A stretch of DNA of 64,000 nt. Source: a virus (Duplodnaviria > Caudoviricetes). The notes under the pieces were generated by a model, which worked only from the letters and a program-made list of their open reading frames with translations, searched no databases and was not told where the DNA came from. The stretch lies in IMG/VR virus record IMGVR_UViG_2831987924_000001; one strand, 5' to 3'. The position numbers and the translations under genes are program-made. This document shows, piece after piece, positions 1,459-28,148 of this stretch (its first letter is position 1; each line of letters begins with the position of its first letter).

Positions 1459-2895
1459 TTAATCAGCTCGTTCTAAATATCCTAATTCTACCCAAGTATT
1501 TAAATCTAAATTTACTTCATACACTAAAATTAAATCTTTCTCACCGCCCCTATTCTTTTCAACCTTTTTTGCATAATATGTTTTATTTCTTTCTAATGAA
1601 ATGTAGCCCCATTCGTCTTTACCTTTAGCTACTTTAATTTGATATTTGTCATATTTATTTTTCGGCAATCTTTTTCCTAACAACATATGATCGCAAATAT
1701 GTTTAATTTGTTTACTGTTTGCAATCATTTTTGAGTTATAATCAAAAATATCTACATCTTTTGCATCATCCGACAACTGGAAGCTTGCATATATCCCAAT
1801 ATTCAATTCATTTGCAATATCTTTTAATAACGTTGCTGTTTGTTTTAATGTATCCCATGCATCTGTCTGATACCCTTTTAACGTGTCATAAAATACATAT
1901 TTGACACCCAACAAGCTATATTTTTTAATTTCACGTTTTAAATCATCATCAGAATATTGATTCATTTCCAAGAAATAAATTTTCGAATGTTCTTCTATAT
2001 ATTTACCCACTTCTAATGCTTTCTGATACTGTTCTTCATTTTCATATGTTCCGAGTAAAACTGTGCGCTCACTTATATTGTATTCAAATCCATATTCTCT
2101 ACTGTTCATAACAGTTGATAAAATCATTGCAAAAAACTCTTCTTCATCCATTTCATTCGCTAGAATTAACACTGGAATTTGTTTCAATATACCTAAATAC
2201 GCTGCTATTTTCGCAACTTTCCTTGATTTACCTTCATTACTTAGCATTCCATCTAAAATTAATTTCTTTGGTCGCCAACCACGAAATAAATTCGTCCAAA
2301 TTTCAAATGGAAATTCTTCTCCCATATCAGGTTCTATACTCCACTCTTCAATCTTTTTAGTTGCATCGCTTCCAAGAATAATTGCTGATTTGCCACCACC
2401 AATAACTGTACTTATATGACTAATGTTATAACTCATCCAATTAATCACATCATCTGGACTCATTTTATGAAAATGTTTAGTAGACAAAAGCTTTTCAACA
2501 GGAAATCCTTTTCTAGCAAATTCACGAACTAATGAATATTTCTTAATCGTTTTAAAGTAATTCTCTGCATCGTTTACATCTGCTAAATCCATTTGTTTTT
2601 CGATTGTTTTCCATCCACCAATTTTACGATACATTTTCCAACGGTCAGGATCTTGTTGCATAAAAATATTCACTTTCGATTCTGTTACTTCTTGTGAAAA
2701 AGTTTTATAAAATACTTCGAAAGCATTGTATAAAAAGCGAACATCTTCATCATAGAAATCATATTTAGCTTTAACTAAACTTTCATAATTTATATAAAGA
2801 ATAGGTTTGGCATACAATGCTCCAATAAACAATGCTTCTGTTGTAATATCATTAGGCTCTTCTACTCGTGTTTTAACCACTAATACACACCTCAC
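1459..2895 (-). CDS. Replicative DnaB-like helicase, YorI-like
   Basis: Walker A-like SNEGKS, ANEM, VFYD, KNRGG arginine finger. Confidence 0.85.
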   Translation of the reverse strand: MRCVLVVKTRVEEPNDITTEALFIGALYAKPILYINYESLVKAKYDFYDEDVRFLYNAFEVFYKTFSQEVTESKVNIFMQQDPDRWKMYRKIGGWKTIEKQMDLADVNDAENYFKTIKKYSLVREFARKGFPVEKLLSTKHFHKMSPDDVINWMSYNISHISTVIGGGKSAIILGSDATKKIEEWSIEPDMGEEFPFEIWTNLFRGWRPKKLILDGMLSNEGKSRKVAKIAAYLGILKQIPVLILANEMDEEEFFAMILSTVMNSREYGFEYNISERTVLLGTYENEEQYQKALEVGKYIEEHSKIYFLEMNQYSDDDLKREIKKYSLLGVKYVFYDTLKGYQTDAWDTLKQTATLLKDIANELNIGIYASFQLSDDAKDVDIFDYNSKMIANSKQIKHICDHMLLGKRLPKNKYDKYQIKVAKGKDEWGYISLERNKTYYAKKVEKNRGGEKDLILVYEVNLDLNTWVELGYLERAD

Positions 2896-4818: not shown

Positions 4819-5820
4819 TCACCACGGCAAGTCCAAATCGTCTATATCTTCACTATCTCCCCAACTTGAATCAACTTGACCTTCTGAATTCAATTTCTTA
4901 ATCGCTTCTTCAATCGCTTCTTCTGTGTAAGTTTCTGTATCAATTGAATCTGGACTCGCACCTGTAATTACCAGTTCACGAACATAGCTTTTATTAATAC
5001 GCTTAAATGTATCTTCTTCACCCCATACATTTGAAGCTTCTTCTACTTCATCTGTATCAATTTTATTTACAATTTTACCCCATACATCAATAGCTGTATA
5101 TGGCTTTAATTTTCCTCTAAAATTATTAGCAAGTGCTTTATTGTAGATAATAAATTCTGCATCTTCAATAGAATTATAGTTAACAATTTTTGCTTCCACA
5201 ATAAAGCGTGGCTCTTCACTTTCATTGTCTTTTTCAATATTCATAAAAACAATTTTTTGTTTAAAATCGCTTGTTTCTTTGAAATCAGGAGATTCAAAGT
5301 CAACATTGCTAGAGTTATAAATTTGTCTTACATTAAATCGTTTATTACGTGAAACTTCTCCATTATCACGTTTAAATGATGAAAATTCAATTTCACCTTG
5401 TACAAATACAGGCATACCATCTTCTAATTGTTCATAAATTTTTTCGGCTGCATCAAACTCTGTATATGTATGTTTTACATTCTTACCGTTCTCATCTTTT
5501 TCTAATCCAACAGCAACACCGATCAATTCATATCCTTCACCTTGATCATCAAATCTTTTTGCCCACGCAACCTTCTTTGTTTCAGTTTTACCATTTCCTA
5601 CCCGTTTGCTAAAATAAACATCGTCACGTTCCATACCTTGTACTGTTACAAATACTGTTGATTCTGGAGCTGTTTCTACACCAAAATTAAGCACGTACAT
5701 TTTTTTGCCACTTCTTGTTTCAATTTCTTTAAATGTATTATCTCGTTGCATACCAGTTACATATCCCCGTAATTTGAAAATCCCTTTTGTTTGCGGTAAA
5801 CCATGTTTTGTATTTGCCAT
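4819..5820 (-). CDS. Single-stranded DNA-binding protein, YorF-like
   Basis: OB-fold-like beta pattern and acidic tail ending DIDDLDLPW. Confidence 0.7.
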   Translation of the reverse strand: MANTKHGLPQTKGIFKLRGYVTGMQRDNTFKEIETRSGKKMYVLNFGVETAPESTVFVTVQGMERDDVYFSKRVGNGKTETKKVAWAKRFDDQGEGYELIGVAVGLEKDENGKNVKHTYTEFDAAEKIYEQLEDGMPVFVQGEIEFSSFKRDNGEVSRNKRFNVRQIYNSSNVDFESPDFKETSDFKQKIVFMNIEKDNESEEPRFIVEAKIVNYNSIEDAEFIIYNKALANNFRGKLKPYTAIDVWGKIVNKIDTDEVEEASNVWGEEDTFKRINKSYVRELVITGASPDSIDTETYTEEAIEEAIKKLNSEGQVDSSWGDSEDIDDLDLPW

Positions 5821-6056
5821 ATTAATATTCCTCCTTTTGTTCCTTTTTAATTTAATATTTTTATATTTTTATTGATAATCTTTTATATTTGGAGGATCAC
5901 GCCCAATTCGTTCTATGGTACTCACCGCCTTTCAATAAAACAATTATTTTATCGTATGTTTAACACAAGATGTTGTATGTCAATTTGTTTATCACTACTA
6001 TATATTGTATTATTTTTATATTTTGTTTGATTCGTGTTGTTTAACCCTGCAATCTT

Positions 6057-6116
6057 ATCTTATAACATTTCATTTTCCTTTGTCAATATTATTTTTATAT
6101 TTTATTTAATTATTTT
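6057..6116 (-). promoter_or_regulatory. sigmaA promoter with upstream phage operator-like motif
   Basis: TTGACA (6086-6081), TAAGAT, and upstream TTAAATAAAATATAA. Confidence 0.7.
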
Positions 6117-6121
6117 ATATA

Positions 6122-7513
6122 TCAGCTTATATATTTTTGATTACGTTGCTCTCTTTCTTGCTTTTCTAACTGTTCTTTAATAATCTTTTCAATATTCGGC
6201 GTTGCAATATTTCTCGCAGCATTAATATCAGCATTCTCTTTATAACCACAAACTTGACAAATGAATTGACCTTGTTCTGGTCTCCAATCTTTTTTCTCAT
6301 AACTCTTATGTATATGACCGCATTTTGAACATCTAGCTGACGTATAAGCAGGATCAATATACACTACATCAATTCCATGTTCTCTTGCCTTATATTCTAT
6401 TTTTTGTTGTAAATCATAAAAACTCCAATTCTTTAAAAACGAATATTCTTCAGGAATAATGCCTTCTAATTTTTCCATTTGAATTGTTCCACATTTGTTT
6501 TTTAAAGCTATGTTAATAATTTCCCTGCTCCAAACATGATTCTTTAAGTTTTTAAAATTATTAATTTTCTCCCCGATATTTAAAACAGGTTTTATACGTG
6601 TCTTAATACCATGCCCTACTCGACCATCTCCAGCCCAAACAGACCATTTTTGCAACTGTTTCTTTCTTACTTCAATTTTTGTTCTAAAATCTTCAATCTC
6701 TTTTCGATCTCCAATAAACCATTTTTTATATGGCATATCATTTATAGCAACAGCAGCAGGAATGTTATATCCAATATCTATTCCCATGATTCGATTTTTA
6801 TCTAATTTTTCATCTTTCTTTTGTTCAAAAGAATAAACTAAATCAAAAAATATCTTGTTACCTTTCATAAAGATACGTGAACCACCTATTTTATATTCTT
6901 TATTTAAAACTCGTTCTAAAATAACTTTATTATATTTATCATTTGCTTTAATATAAAAACGAATATTCATATCATTAATGTTTCGTTTATGTACTTTTTC
7001 TTCTTTTTTATTCTTTGTTTTTACAGTAATACCGTTATATAGTTCTTCAGCATATTCTTTTCGCAATAAACGAACAGTGACAATATAATTATTATCGTTA
7101 CTTTTATTGATCTTTACTTGTGACCCTCTAAATAAAATTGGGTGTCCTTTTTTAAAACTTAAAAAACTTGCTTTACCTAACATAAAATCTTCTTTATTTT
7201 TCTTCATTTTTACTTTTACTTCTCTAGTTATTGTTTCAACAGAGTCACCATTCATTTTCTGAAATTCCTTCTTTAAGTTTCTGTTTATATAAGCGTCATC
7301 TGCAACACCTTCTACGTCTTTTACATTAAACTTTATCCCAAATTTACTATAATAAATCTTTTTAAAGTTGTCTGCTTCCCATAAATATTGAGCACAGCGA
7401 TTTAAACAATTCCATGTTTCGTAACTAATTTGATTTAAAATATATCGAAAAACTTCCCAATCATCATCTAAAGGTCTAACAATTTGATACCTCATTGTTT
7501 TAGTACATGTCAT
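6122..7513 (-). CDS. cas12f: Type V-F CRISPR effector Cas12f1 (V-U3/C2c10-like)
   Basis: Collinear with AsCas12f1 as recalled (RYQIVRPLD, IMGID, GHGIKTRIKP, CGTIQME, FLKNWSFYDLQQKIEYKA, CxxC/CxxC, NADINAARNIA); RuvC D/E/D intact; adjacent array and tracrRNA. Confidence 0.93.
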   Translation of the reverse strand: MTCTKTMRYQIVRPLDDDWEVFRYILNQISYETWNCLNRCAQYLWEADNFKKIYYSKFGIKFNVKDVEGVADDAYINRNLKKEFQKMNGDSVETITREVKVKMKKNKEDFMLGKASFLSFKKGHPILFRGSQVKINKSNDNNYIVTVRLLRKEYAEELYNGITVKTKNKKEEKVHKRNINDMNIRFYIKANDKYNKVILERVLNKEYKIGGSRIFMKGNKIFFDLVYSFEQKKDEKLDKNRIMGIDIGYNIPAAVAINDMPYKKWFIGDRKEIEDFRTKIEVRKKQLQKWSVWAGDGRVGHGIKTRIKPVLNIGEKINNFKNLKNHVWSREIINIALKNKCGTIQMEKLEGIIPEEYSFLKNWSFYDLQQKIEYKAREHGIDVVYIDPAYTSARCSKCGHIHKSYEKKDWRPEQGQFICQVCGYKENADINAARNIATPNIEKIIKEQLEKQEREQRNQKYIS

Positions 7514-7704
7514 TTTTTCACCTTCTTTTTTGCTTTTATTTTCTTTAATATTTTTTCAGCTTTTTCATACGTTTCGTATATCTTCATTAAAGAAACTAAC
7601 TTCTTCTTTTTAATATTTTCGCATTTTACCCATACAGATGTTCCGCGTTTTGATGGATATAATATTTCAATTCTATATATAGAATCATTTCTAATTATAT
7701 ACAT
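7510..7704 (-). CDS. Small Lys-rich protein overlapping the cas12f start (ATGA)
   Basis: GAAGGTGA RBS, 64 aa, stop/start overlap. Confidence 0.6.
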   Translation of the reverse strand: MYIIRNDSIYRIEILYPSKRGTSVWVKCENIKKKKLVSLMKIYETYEKAEKILKKIKAKKKVKK

Positions 7705-7753
7705 TTTATATCACCTTCACATTATATATTTCCATTCAATATAAATTCATCTA

Positions 7754-7981
7754 CTTCACACCATACTTGATTAATTTAAAACTATTGATACAAGCACAGC
7801 GGCAGGCAAAGCGCTGTTCTTCACACCATACTTGATTAATTTAAAACGGAGAAATTAAGGTTTTTTCATAGAATATATAATTATGCTTCACACCATACTT
7901 GATTAATTTAAAACTCGATTAGTATTGATTTCGTATCAAAATCAACATGTTCCTTCACACCATACTTGATTAATTTAAAAC
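7754..7981 (-). CRISPR. CRISPR array: 4 identical 29-bp repeats GTTTTAAATTAATCAAGTATGGTGTGAAG, spacers 36/38/38 bp
   Basis: Repeats at 7754-7782, 7819-7847, 7886-7914, 7953-7981; orientation from the GTTT...GTGAAG ends and leader position. Confidence 0.97.
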
Positions 7982-8125
7982 CCTATAATTATCAAAACTT
8001 TTCTAATTAAACACATTAATCATTTTTACAAAAACACTACATTTTTTATTCATTTTGCAGTGAACCTATTTCGCTAATCCATTGATAAATCAATATTTTT
8101 AAAATTAACTACCACTTCACTGCAA
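7982..8125 (-). promoter_or_regulatory. CRISPR leader
   Basis: AT-rich, with inverted repeat TTGCAGTGAA (8055-8064) / TTCACTGCAA (8116-8125). Confidence 0.7.
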
Positions 8126-8130
8126 TTTAT

Positions 8131-8305
8131 TTTTGTATGGTGTCTAGCCGGAGTTTGTGGCTAGAGTTTCAGCCAGCTTATTGCTGGACTACCTTATCGA
8201 GTGTTGTTCCCTTTAATTATGGTATTCGAACGATTAATATGTATTTACTCTCGTTAGGGAACACTTCTCGATCTAAGGACGCTGAATAGCCCTATGGTGT
8301 GAATT
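8131..8305 (-). ncRNA. Cas12f tracrRNA
   Basis: Minus strand has TTCAGC...CGAGAAGTG...ACTCGATAAGGTAG...GCTGAAACTC, a stem, then anti-repeat ACACCATAC, matching the AsCas12f1 tracr layout; ends approximate. Confidence 0.85.
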
Positions 8306-8373
8306 TATATTTTAAATATTATTATATTTTATTTAATAATGGTTCACATAAACATCACCTCTTTTCTATTCTT

Positions 8374-8493
8374 ATCTTATCGCTGTTGTTTTTAGTTGTC
8401 AATATTATTTTTATAATTTATTTAATTATTTTTATTAAATTATTTAGCAGCAATTTCTAATCTTATCTTACTATTGTTCAAATCTAATGTCAA
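8374..8493 (-). promoter_or_regulatory. Tandem sigmaA promoters facing tracr-array-cas12f
   Basis: TTGACA-17-TAAGAT at 8402-8374 and 8493-8465. Confidence 0.75.
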
Positions 8494-8512
8494 CACATTT
8501 TTTATAATTTTA

Positions 8513-9796
8513 TTAATAATAACTTGGTTCATCTTTATCGTGTCTAATGCAAATAAACACTGGGAAAGATACACTTAATCCTCCGTCTTGATTGCGTGAT
8601 TCACGGAAATATTGAATTTCTGCAATCTTACCTAAATATTTTTCTTTATTGTTCCATATTTCTTTGCGATCTTCATCTGTAAATCCCGAACCGCAGCGAA
8701 GCTCATAGCCTTTATAATCTAAAAGTAATGCACCTAACATACCTTCATATTTTCCTGTTCCCTCTTCAAATCCGATAATTTTACAATCCATAGTATTCAT
8801 GGACTTGATTTTTAATAACACATCAGTGCGTTTGCATTGATATTTACCATCGCTAACATTCAACATCAAGCCTTCCTTACCTTTTCGATTCATTTCTTCG
8901 AGTAATTTAGGAATTACATCTAAATCTTTACCAACATATAAATTCGGCACAACCTTAATATACGGTGATTTTAATTTATCAACAATAAACTCTAATTCTT
9001 CTTTACGCTTTCGATATGTTGCTTTTGATTTCCCCGCTTTAAATTCTTCAATTGGAATCATATCAAATAAATGCAATACCAAACCTCGTTTTTCTCTATC
9101 TTTACGAGCGATCTTTAATGTTTCTTGCAGTACTTCTCGATCTTTATAATCATCAGCATTAGCGATCAATAATTCTCCATCATACACATTATCAGGTAAG
9201 AATACCGCATCTCTCATAATTTCAACTAATCCTGTAATCGGTTGTCCTTGACGTGAAAAGAATGTCACATTCCCATTTTCAACAATCATAATGGTACGCA
9301 TTCCATCAAGCTTTTCAGTAATGACAAATTCTTTGCCTTTTACTTTATGTTCTTCATCTTCAAATTTCTTTGCCAACATTACATTAAACTCTGGAATAAA
9401 CTTCTCACCAAAAGCCTTATTGATTGACTTTGCCGTTGCCCCAATTTTTAGCGTCTTTGTGATAATCTCTTCATATAATCCCTTTAATTCTTCATCATCT
9501 TGTGCATTTAAAAATTCAGCAACCATTTTCACATCATGATCTGTTCCTGTATTATGTACTTTTAAATACTTGATTACTTCAAATAAATCATTAAATTTAT
9601 TTTCTTTACCAGTTGCTTTGTTAATAAATTTCTTTAATTTCTTTTCACCAATACCAAAAACAATATATGGATTTAGTGCTGCGTCTAATACCTTTCTTAA
9701 TGTTTGATTATTTTTATGTTGCTTTAAAATCACTTCCTTTTCATTCCGACTATTTGTTGCTTTGATTTGATTAATAATCTCTAATACCTCTTTCAT
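8513..9796 (-). CDS. ATP-dependent DNA ligase
   Basis: EKLDGMR, YDGEL, EGLML, LKIK, GSGF motifs. Confidence 0.93.
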   Translation of the reverse strand: MKEVLEIINQIKATNSRNEKEVILKQHKNNQTLRKVLDAALNPYIVFGIGEKKLKKFINKATGKENKFNDLFEVIKYLKVHNTGTDHDVKMVAEFLNAQDDEELKGLYEEIITKTLKIGATAKSINKAFGEKFIPEFNVMLAKKFEDEEHKVKGKEFVITEKLDGMRTIMIVENGNVTFFSRQGQPITGLVEIMRDAVFLPDNVYDGELLIANADDYKDREVLQETLKIARKDREKRGLVLHLFDMIPIEEFKAGKSKATYRKRKEELEFIVDKLKSPYIKVVPNLYVGKDLDVIPKLLEEMNRKGKEGLMLNVSDGKYQCKRTDVLLKIKSMNTMDCKIIGFEEGTGKYEGMLGALLLDYKGYELRCGSGFTDEDRKEIWNNKEKYLGKIAEIQYFRESRNQDGGLSVSFPVFICIRHDKDEPSYY

Positions 9797-26990: not shown

Positions 26991-28148
26991 TGTGTAATAT
27001 TTTAGATTTGTATTTGCATTATTATTTAAGATGTTAATTGCTCCAACTAAATCTCGATGTTGTTTATAACCACATGAACACTCATAATTTCTTTTATTTG
27101 GTTTATTTAATTCGCCGCAATTTGGACATTTCTTTGATGTATATTTTTCATTAATTTTAACTAGTTTAATTCCATATCTGCTCAATTTATTTTCTAATTG
27201 TCTTATAATTTCACCAAAATTCCACTGTGATAATTTTTGTCTGACGAATCTATTTCCTTTTTTATTTTGTTTTGTATTTCTTGTGGCTGAGTCTAAATCC
27301 CCATAATAAACTACGCTTACATTATTTTGAATACAGAAGTCTAAATATAATTTTGTTATTTTGTGTACAGCGTCATTTATTTTTCTTTCTGTTTTATACG
27401 TCAATTTTCTCAATGCATTCATATATTTCAAATATTGTTTACTACCCTTTTTACACTTGCTCATTCTTTTATAAATTTCTGCTTGATGTTTATTTCTCAA
27501 TTGTTTAATTGATCTCAATTTCCGACCTGTGATAATAACGGCATTACCACATGTGTCGATAGAAGTGATGGAGTGTATTTCACCAAGATCGATAGCAGCG
27601 TGATTATCTGATTGAATTTGATGATATTGAACTTTTTCTTTATATTTAATTGCAAGATAAAGTTTGTCTCTATAAACTAATTCAATTTCTACAATGTTTT
27701 GTGGAATATTTTTAACATAGCATACAACTGGTTTTTGTTTTCGATATTTACCGTTTATTTTTTCTTTAGTCATTGGTTTAGCTAACATTAATTTATTTCC
27801 GTTTATTTTATAACTTTGCGAATCCCATCCTGTAACAAAATATTTCTTTTGTTTGTATGGATAAAACACATCTTTCCTTCCCTCCTCTTTAGCTCTTCTT
27901 GCCGCATCTCTTGCAAAAAGATATTTATGAACTACATGATGAATTCCTTTCGCATGAAGAGGGACACATTGTTTAGTTAATTTCTGCAATTCATTTCTCT
28001 GAATCCATCTACCATTATTTTGTTCCCTATATTCTTTTTCGATTTTTAAACATAAATTCCATACTTCTGCTGAAAGTTTATTACAGTTAAGTAAATATAA
28101 ATAGTCTTCTTTTGAACATTTAACTGGAACAATAAGAGTTTTATACAT
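26964..28148 (-). CDS. tnpB: TnpB-family RNA-guided nuclease, no adjacent tnpA
   Basis: AIDLGEIH, YYGDL, YTSKKCPNC, CSCG, HRDLVGAINIL. Confidence 0.9.
   Translation of the reverse strand: MYKTLIVPVKCSKEDYLYLLNCNKLSAEVWNLCLKIEKEYREQNNGRWIQRNELQKLTKQCVPLHAKGIHHVVHKYLFARDAARRAKEEGRKDVFYPYKQKKYFVTGWDSQSYKINGNKLMLAKPMTKEKINGKYRKQKPVVCYVKNIPQNIVEIELVYRDKLYLAIKYKEKVQYHQIQSDNHAAIDLGEIHSITSIDTCGNAVIITGRKLRSIKQLRNKHQAEIYKRMSKCKKGSKQYLKYMNALRKLTYKTERKINDAVHKITKLYLDFCIQNNVSVVYYGDLDSATRNTKQNKKGNRFVRQKLSQWNFGEIIRQLENKLSRYGIKLVKINEKYTSKKCPNCGELNKPNKRNYECSCGYKQHRDLVGAINILNNNANTNLKYYTTKKYLRIT

Follow-up and report, generated by a model that had tools for sequence, protein, structure and literature searches.

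Among solved structures, the closest to the system described here are those of AsCas12f1 (PDB 8J12, 8J3R, 8J1J, 7WJU and 8DZJ), a type V-F1 effector formerly classed as V-U3, and a Cas12f branch without adaptation genes is described in a 2023 PNAS survey (PMC10691335). The locus lies in a 64,000-nucleotide stretch of a thermophilic Bacillus-group genome (the window, G000:C5:1,379,872-1,443,871), where positions 6122-8493 of the minus strand hold, in order of transcription, two promoters, a trans-activating clustered regularly interspaced short palindromic repeat (CRISPR) RNA (tracrRNA), a leader, a CRISPR array, an open reading frame (ORF) of 64 residues (orf64) and cas12f. Each component was found where an earlier first-pass annotation, made from the letters of the stretch, had placed it. 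As in the branch described by the survey, adaptation genes are lacking from the cassette, which sits in a prophage. The encoded protein resembles AsCas12f1 in size and in its RuvC and zinc-ribbon motifs, with ~40-45% identity over the aligned stretch, and the core of its tracrRNA has homologues in close Bacillales loci. It differs from AsCas12f1 in a 21-residue insertion in the N-terminal half, in its locus order (tracr-array-orf64-cas12f here, cas12f-tracr-array there) and in being carried by a phage. These features, together with the spacer matches presented below, are best explained, with a probability of roughly 0.7, by a complete, probably active, adaptation-less V-F1 Cas12f interference module, present as a promoter-flanked cassette in an integrated temperate E3-like phage, that most likely destroys satellite-like islands or small rival prophages. 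The parts of the module itself are the following.

6122..7513, minus strand: cas12f, a 463-residue ORF for a type V-F1 (AsCas12f-like) effector with an intact RuvC and a TNB zinc ribbon.
7510..7704, minus strand: orf64, 64 residues, lysine-rich, with its own Shine-Dalgarno sequence and a stop codon that overlaps the cas12f start (ATGA).
7754..7981, minus strand: CRISPR array of four identical 29-nucleotide (nt) repeats (7754-7782, 7819-7847, 7886-7914 and 7953-7981).
7783-7818 (S1), 7848-7885 (S2) and 7915-7952 (S3), minus strand: spacers of 36, 38 and 38 nt, with S3 closest to the leader.
7982..8119, minus strand: AT-rich leader from the tracrRNA to the first repeat, within an 89%-identical stretch common to the sister locus L011.
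About 8120..8306, minus strand: predicted tracrRNA core, with an anti-repeat, homology to other Cas12f loci and a covarying fold.

The likely targets of the module were identified from its spacers (W_S1 to W_S3) and from those of the sister array (V_S1 to V_S7) in L011, a 29-kb IMG/VR contig from a second E3-like phage that carries the cassette at the same site between the genes for DNA ligase and gp104. All ten spacers were searched in the lysogen and 47 other genomes of the family, and in fetched loci a protospacer was allowed at most 8 substitutions. Protospacers were found for seven of the ten (W_S2, W_S3 and V_S1 to V_S5), and spacer-matched islands are present in 11 of the 47 related genomes. 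W_S3 matches G031 at 38/38 positions and G045 and G035 at 36/38, W_S2 matches G033 and G021 at 36/38, V_S2 matches G007 at 39/39 and V_S5 matches G045 at 38/39. Further protospacers were found for V_S1 (G005, G009, G032, G021 and G033), V_S3 (G032) and V_S4 (G005 and G041), and G040 and G020 gave weak spacer matches only (E about 0.008-0.01). The lysogen's own genome contains no match to the window spacers, and a search of 50,697 phage records returned chance matches only, of 19-22 nt or 35 nt. Most protospacers fall within coding sequences, namely those for an integrase, a GLUG protein, a 150-residue ORF, a capsid protein, a portal and, for V_S5, an 87-residue ORF without assignment. The W_S2 site is a repeated intergenic sequence downstream of the island rep gene, beside a promoter-like and ribosome-binding stretch. 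The first-pass annotation had proposed a weapon against competing mobile elements, and these matches to islands in other genomes support that proposal directly.

A protospacer adjacent motif (PAM) was read from the best protospacer of each of the seven spacers. At positions -3 to -1, on the 5' side of the strand that matches the CRISPR RNA (crRNA), five of the seven carry CCT, one carries CCA and one, a match with 5 mismatches, carries CTG; C occupies position -3 in all seven. Since CCT has a frequency of 0.0089 across the target loci, the probability of five or more CCT flanks among seven is ~1e-9. A type V effector that reads a 5' PAM and has interference-competent spacers would be expected to leave such a signature. 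The PAM of AsCas12f1 is T-rich, while the one deduced here is C-rich (CCT). Among the island variants matched by V_S1, the protospacer is flanked by TCCT in two (L155 and L157) and by TCTT in three (L158, L159 and L152), a variation that may represent PAM escape.

The matched elements are low-GC (guanine plus cytosine), integrase-bearing islands of ~16 to 38 kb in related thermophilic genomes. The 15.9-kb island of G033, which as a whole is also an IMG/VR entry, lies between yebC and bofC-ruvAB and encodes a tyrosine integrase (PF00589), a helix-turn-helix (HTH)/replication initiator (phrog_1835/270), a GLUG-motif protein and an HTH regulator (HTH_3), along with a SU10-type major capsid protein, an SPP1-type portal and a small-terminase-like protein. 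Across the 26 ORFs of the island no match to a tail, lysis or large-terminase family was found, with many island ORFs matching no family at all, and this island type likewise has no match to a head-tail adaptor or HNH protein. A 491-residue island protein has no match in the PDB and only an HTH/replication-initiator lead from a protein atlas, and the 439-residue GLUG protein matches only an IgA1-protease-like chain. Islands syntenic with that of G033 occur in G005, G021, G009, G007, G004, G041 and G032. Of the 47 other family genomes, 8 encode the island portal, spread over 4 of 10 genera, and all eight contain protospacers; the lysogen has neither the portal nor an island of this kind. A second island type, in G031, G045 and G035, has its integrase-proximal genes in common with the G033 type and measures 27-38 kb. 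In G031 it carries HNH, large terminase, portal, minor head protein, scaffold, capsid, adaptor and Neck1 genes, with an FtsK/partition module adjacent. A 190-residue island protein falls into PHROG 5251 and 24208, as does a prophage protein whose gene lies between those for the portal and neck (28% identity, E 2e-11), which is a weak hint of a structural interface.

The G033 island also contains a solitary CRISPR repeat of the phage type (27/29 bases; L166:13136-13164, the same as L178:1501-1529), and this is the only instance seen: the repeat motif has no match in genome contigs, and among viral contigs it matches only this island. The solitary repeat has the sense orientation and lies in an operon, where it separates the GLUG gene from the ribosome-binding site of the next gene. 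Set against five other islands, the unit is an insertion of 36 nt accompanied by a 7-bp duplication (ATGTGGA), and either a decoy RNA or a scar left by recombination is conceivable.

The role favoured by this gene content is most likely an anti-satellite one, directed at islands or small competing prophages that would hinder the phage or live at its expense. A general contest with small prophages or integrative elements is the main rival to this role, and in it the phage-borne Cas12f would face ordinary temperate phages, defective prophages or integrative elements and not helper-dependent satellites. It would then serve mobile-element competition or superinfection exclusion at large, perhaps in the lysogenic state and in a way that helps the host. 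Such a role is possible but is considered somewhat unlikely. It draws on the G031-type element, whose 27-38 kb, genes for large terminase, portal, scaffold, capsid, adaptor and Neck1, and adjacent FtsK/partition module would suit a prophage, and on tail genes that could hide among the many family-less island ORFs. It accords poorly with the G033-type island, which at only 15.9 kb has no tail, lysis or large-terminase match in any of its 26 ORFs, and with the head-module protein family common to that island and the E3-like prophage. The position of the cassette among replication genes, behind the phage's own type of promoter, also argues against it and fits expression together with those genes.

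Several observations weigh against the anti-satellite role and the module as proposed. W_S1, V_S6 and V_S7 have no match in the 48 family genomes or the phage collection, and the window array has three spacers only. The PAM is drawn from only 7 independent observations, because the protospacers of one spacer across genomes are homologous. The G031-type elements, with their 27-38 kb and large terminase, could be defective or unusual prophages, and a 109-residue ORF with a weak tape-measure match lies at the edge of the G031 region. Many island ORFs belong to no family, and the satellite reading comes from gene content only. Sequencing runs with part of the stretch number 19, of which none contains at least half of the sampled words, with RNA runs reaching 0.21 at most. 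As for spacer acquisition, the lone host type I-B protospacer on the prophage is flanked by TTA, not CCT.

The effector itself is a new member of Cas12f1. In a search of all solved structures its closest matches were five AsCas12f sequences (8j3r, 8j12, 8j1j, 7wju and 8dzj; E 1e-81 to 3.7e-78), in an alignment that covers residues 4-449, followed by other Cas12f chains and then by Cas14a/Un1Cas12f1 at ~1e-33. A Cas12f1-like TNB domain (PF07282) was found by Pfam in residues 365-436 (5.8e-24). In NCBIfam the top match was the guided_TnpB model (152.6 bits, cut-off 100), and the scores of the Cas12f2 model NF049972 (112.4 bits, cut-off 450) and the IS200_TnpB model (50.1 bits, cut-off 425) were both below their cut-offs. 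In an alignment of 23 sequences, comprising this Cas12f and 22 relatives, the RuvC I-III residues D246, E347 and D429 are invariant and align with the GIDxG, QME and NAD motifs of AsCas12f; the zinc-ribbon cysteines C395, C398, C419 and C422 are invariant as well. The description of an intact-RuvC Cas12f in the first-pass annotation therefore holds, as does its mention of a basic insertion of about 20 residues relative to AsCas12f1, which is seen as gaps of 15+3+3 residues in AsCas12f (21 in all). The insertion is common to four relatives (P0005, P0007, P0010 and P0022) and so is not unique to this protein.

In a quick IQ-TREE tree of 45 rows, the protein falls within a 40-row Cas12f1 clade with 99% support in the Shimodaira-Hasegawa-like approximate likelihood ratio test (SH-aLRT), together with Syntrophomonas palmitatica and Sulfoacidibacillus loci, and the five host TnpBs fall outside this clade. 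The phylogeny, which the first-pass annotation had named among its checks, places the protein with CRISPR-associated Cas12f1 and not with IS-borne TnpB, the outcome given there as a refutation. Its use as a candidate miniature editor, also raised there, seems reasonable. Elsewhere in the prophage, at window ~27000-27233 (G000:C5:1,406,871-1,407,104), a second ORF of the TnpB family (open frame 401 residues) is 36% identical to the Cas12f C-terminus and groups with the host's TnpB copies of the insertion sequence (IS) type.

The RNA components predicted by the first-pass annotation are likewise present. All four repeats are perfect, and in minus-strand sense the repeat begins GTTTT and ends GTGTGAAG. 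The 3' anti-repeat of the predicted tracrRNA (8124-8148) is complementary to the repeat (inverted repeats I1, I2, I6 and I13-15), and a second short complement, to the 3' end of the repeat, is located at ~8296-8306. The tracrRNA region is 87% identical to its equivalent in L011, and next to the cas12f genes of L094/L037, L019, L096, L107, L103, L097, L090 and L020 lie stretches with 74-91% identity to the core. A 10-locus alignment yields a consensus fold of 29 pairs, 15 of which show compensatory changes on both sides, and the window sequence has a minimum free energy of -48.3 kcal/mol (z -4.7 as compared to shuffles). Anti-repeat and repeat covary as well (ACCAT/ATGGT here, ATCAT/ATGAT in L094). 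Homology to nine other loci and both forms of covariation argue for the tracrRNA; in Rfam, no family matches window 5800-8600. The small orf64 matches no family in Pfam, NCBIfam or PHROGs, and a weak PhiKZ_gp86 match (E 0.018) was dismissed. Its homologues form only 4 clusters in a large protein collection, 90-94% identical, and the longest contigs of three of these (18520, 12590 and 14533) are the same size as those of members of the 97%-identical Cas12f cluster.

The carrier is delimited by base composition and by direct repeats. A block of ~30% GC, from ~1.349 to 1.493 Mb, lies within a chromosome of 51% GC, and perfect 25-nt direct repeats stand at both GC transitions (G000:C5:1,348,898-1,348,922 and 1,492,729-1,492,753), giving a 143.8-kb block that is taken as the prophage (C5:1,348,898-1,492,753). 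Of a 7.7-kb query centred on the locus region, 55% aligns with Geobacillus virus E3 at 91% identity, and E3 (GVE3) is described as a temperate 141-kb siphovirus that is grown at 60 C and produces a 23-bp duplication on integration (PMC8303945). Given this likeness, the bounded low-GC block and the temperate nature of E3, the carrier is an integrated E3-like prophage, in agreement with the phage-borne setting assumed at first pass. A 316-nt stretch of 64% identity links the host flank with the phage end, and this likeness and the 25-nt repeats fit the integration reported for E3, into a gene that also has a copy on the phage (PMC8303945). The cassette is absent from E3, where gp104 and the DNA ligase gene are separated by a spacer of just 380 bp; in this prophage the same spacer, within the replication-gene region, contains the 2.3-kb cassette. 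The sites that flank it are these.

8465..8493, minus strand: promoter P1, TTGACA-17-TAAGAT, downstream of the DNA ligase gene and present in E3 too.
8374..8402, minus strand: promoter P2', TTGACA-17-TAAGAT, at the head of the cassette and conserved in L011.
6057..6086, minus strand: promoter P2'', a duplicate of P2' behind the cassette that faces the gp104 homologue at 4819-5820.
6073..6116, no strand assigned: left copy of a 44-nt direct repeat found on both sides of the cassette, with 91% identity to 8389-8432.
8389..8432, no strand assigned: right copy of the 44-nt direct repeat, the right bracket of the 2.3-kb cassette.

What is duplicated in the 44-nt direct repeat is the phage's own promoter, of which E3 has a single copy. 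P1, P2' and P2'' are consensus-like predicted sites (TTGACA-17/18-TAAGAT), and because the 19 promoter-like sites of the region are no more than in shuffled sequence (mean 20.6), the argument for them rests on their repetition and conservation. No terminator-like site was predicted on the minus strand of the cassette transcript. Just after P2', at window 8344-8355 on the minus strand, is a mini-ORF of three codons (M-F-M-stop) with a strong ribosome-binding site, found in L011 as well, which may be a leftover gene start or a leader peptide. No cas1, cas2 or cas4 was found in the prophage. The genome has one copy of each, at C5:1,687,249-1,689,076, some 195 kb beyond the prophage, so the absence of cas1 and cas2 from the phage locus stands as first noted, with adaptation genes confined to the host locus.

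A host CRISPR array with a 30-nt type I-B-like repeat (G000:C5:1,022,886-1,023,513) has a first spacer that matches the prophage at 37/37 positions (window 1788-1824, flanked by TTA on the presumed crRNA-sense strand). The lysogen thus possesses a self-targeting spacer that perfectly matches the E3-like prophage it harbours. Adaptation in trans by this host type I-B system was considered as a source of the Cas12f spacers, whose lengths are similar, but the sole host protospacer on the prophage has the TTA flank and not CCT, leaving the idea unsupported (n=1).

A second alternative takes the locus for a guide-directed repressor, or for a relic that is decaying or does not cut, in place of a nuclease weapon; it is judged very improbable. 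The short array of three spacers and the lack of adaptation genes speak for it, as do two targeted sites that look regulatory, W_S2 among them with its promoter-like and ribosome-binding stretch after rep. Against it stand the intact RuvC residues (all three) and zinc ribbon, the perfect repeats, the uninterrupted ORF, which is 97% identical in a 17-member cluster of the window's Cas12f lineage from other assemblies, and the location of most protospacers inside coding sequences, and the PAM signal implies selection for interference-competent spacers. The remaining alternative, an IS200/IS605-type TnpB with an omega RNA beside incidental repeats, was rejected as barely credible: although guided_TnpB is the top NCBIfam model and the public names of relatives include 'transposase' or 'TnpB family', the IS200_TnpB model reaches 50 bits against a cut-off of 425, the host TnpB copies stand outside the 40-row clade, the four perfect repeats have spacers that match foreign DNA beside a PAM, a tracrRNA homologue is present, and a promoter duplication rather than IS ends bounds the cassette inside phage genes.

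For the favoured interference module, a working sequence of events can be proposed. P1 and P2' would drive a single minus-strand transcript through the tracrRNA, leader, array, orf64 and cas12f, and the 3' anti-repeat of the tracrRNA would, by homology, pair with each repeat to give crRNAs. Cas12f, expected from its relatives to act as a dimer on one tracr:crRNA, would cut double-stranded DNA at a match beside the CCT-like 5' PAM suggested by the natural protospacers. CCT-flanked matches in an island would then be cut when that island is in, or enters, the same cell. A wider scenario, speculative and rather unlikely as a whole, is a CRISPR arms race fought with a miniature Cas12f between E3-like temperate phages of thermophilic Bacillaceae and capsid-forming satellite islands. 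The phage would keep the adaptation-less V-F1 cassette aimed at the island integrase, origin region, capsid and portal, and the islands would respond by PAM change, as in the V_S1 protospacer with CCT in 2 variants and CTT in 3. One island would have captured the solitary phage repeat, which could be an RNA decoy for Cas12f and its tracrRNA, and the phage would swap the N-terminal recognition half of Cas12f while retaining the tracrRNA and nuclease half.

The comparison with L011 bears on this last point. L011 has the order ligase, P1, P2, tracr, leader, seven repeats plus a degenerate one, and cas12f, with 7 different spacers and no orf64 in the locus. Its flanking DNA is 89% identical to that of the window. 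The two Cas12f proteins (window 6122-7513 and L011:3495-4862) are 50% identical overall and form a mosaic, with identity of 18-35% across the N-terminal 224 residues and of 60-100% in the C-terminal half, complete over the last 39 residues. This pattern suggests exchange or fast change of the recognition half. A single-protein scan of viral, genome and metagenome contigs found no further copy of the locus, and a 23-nt tracr word was found only in the L011 contig among viral contigs and was absent from metagenome and genome contigs. Among the other genomes of the family, G046 alone has a close Cas12f homologue (L176, G046:C2:341,640-342,911; 45% identity), and an in-frame TAA lies inside the match.

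The first-pass annotation had also called the architecture rearranged, with the effector after the array. The survey reports the array downstream of the gene in almost all conserved Cas12-array associations (PMC10691335). The AsCas12f-type order of cas12f, tracr and array is found in L094, L019, L103 and L105, and a tracr stretch lies between the gene and the downstream array in L094, L019, L103 and L097. From 132 fetched loci, 56 were kept that were full length (>=80% coverage), non-duplicate and had at least 1.2 kb on each side. The array, defined as at least three repeats, is upstream in 14 of these and downstream in 21, and none was detected in a further 21, a class that may conceal small arrays as the finder requires three exact 12-mers. 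Viral contigs have 9 upstream and 7 downstream arrays as compared to 5 and 14 in genome contigs, so that the upstream order is perhaps commoner on viral contigs. The array-before-effector order is thus real and unlike that of AsCas12f-type loci, but with 14 of 35 array-bearing relatives it is a common variant and not a rare rearrangement. Two loci with near-identical Cas12f (tree branches 0.022 and 0.012) have the array on opposite sides, upstream in a viral contig (L016) and downstream in an Aneurinibacillus danicus contig (L090); in L090 a tracr-like match lies upstream.

If the favoured reading is true, this would be a second, independent case of phage CRISPR against chromosomal islands, after that of phage ICP1 and the phage-inducible chromosomal island-like element (PLE), a satellite in Vibrio cholerae. 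The smallest class 2 effector would then serve mobile-element conflict without adaptation genes, which raises the question of how spacers are renewed, and Geobacillus-group bacteria would harbour a previously unstudied island family together with a candidate helper phage. In practical terms, the locus offers a 463-residue Cas12f with a defined tracrRNA from a phage lineage with reported growth at 60 C (PMC8303945), and a natural C-rich PAM would broaden the target range of miniature editors. No paper was found that links phage-borne Cas12f to satellites or islands, in a literature search of openly available main texts; Table S4 of PMC10691335 lists spacer matches that could be relevant here.

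Known systems resemble the locus and its targets in different respects. Other upstream-array Cas12f loci (L011, L012, L014, L016, L017, L107, L115-L117 and others) have the same array-then-cas12f order, and orf64 is found only in the sub-lineage of the window. The targets recall phage-inducible chromosomal islands that form capsids (cfPICIs) in having an integrase, a regulator and a replication initiator at one end, and their own capsid and portal, with no tail or holin match in the G033 island. The cfPICIs have a reported median of 14 kb, as compared to 15.9 kb for the G033 island, and are reported as rare in Bacillaceae (<2%) (PMC10085698). This likeness is incomplete for each type, as the G033 type lacks a large terminase, adaptor and HNH, and the G031 type has these but measures 27-38 kb. 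The lone sense-strand repeat in the G033 operon resembles the solitary repeat units of phages that act as RNA anti-CRISPRs, except that it is a single instance, sits in a targeted island and mimics a phage-borne, tracr-dependent system. The nearest parallel in biology is the type I-F system of ICP1, which is likewise borne by a phage and has spacers against chromosomal islands of the host group. As described, ICP1 uses Cascade and Cas2-3 and has its own adaptation genes (cas1, cas2-3), while the present locus has a miniature class 2 single effector and no cas1 or cas2, and belongs to a temperate phage of Gram-positive thermophiles whose targets are satellite-like by gene content alone. A temperate-phage Cas12f apparently aimed at capsid-encoding islands is, on these comparisons, a new variation on the ICP1/PLE theme.

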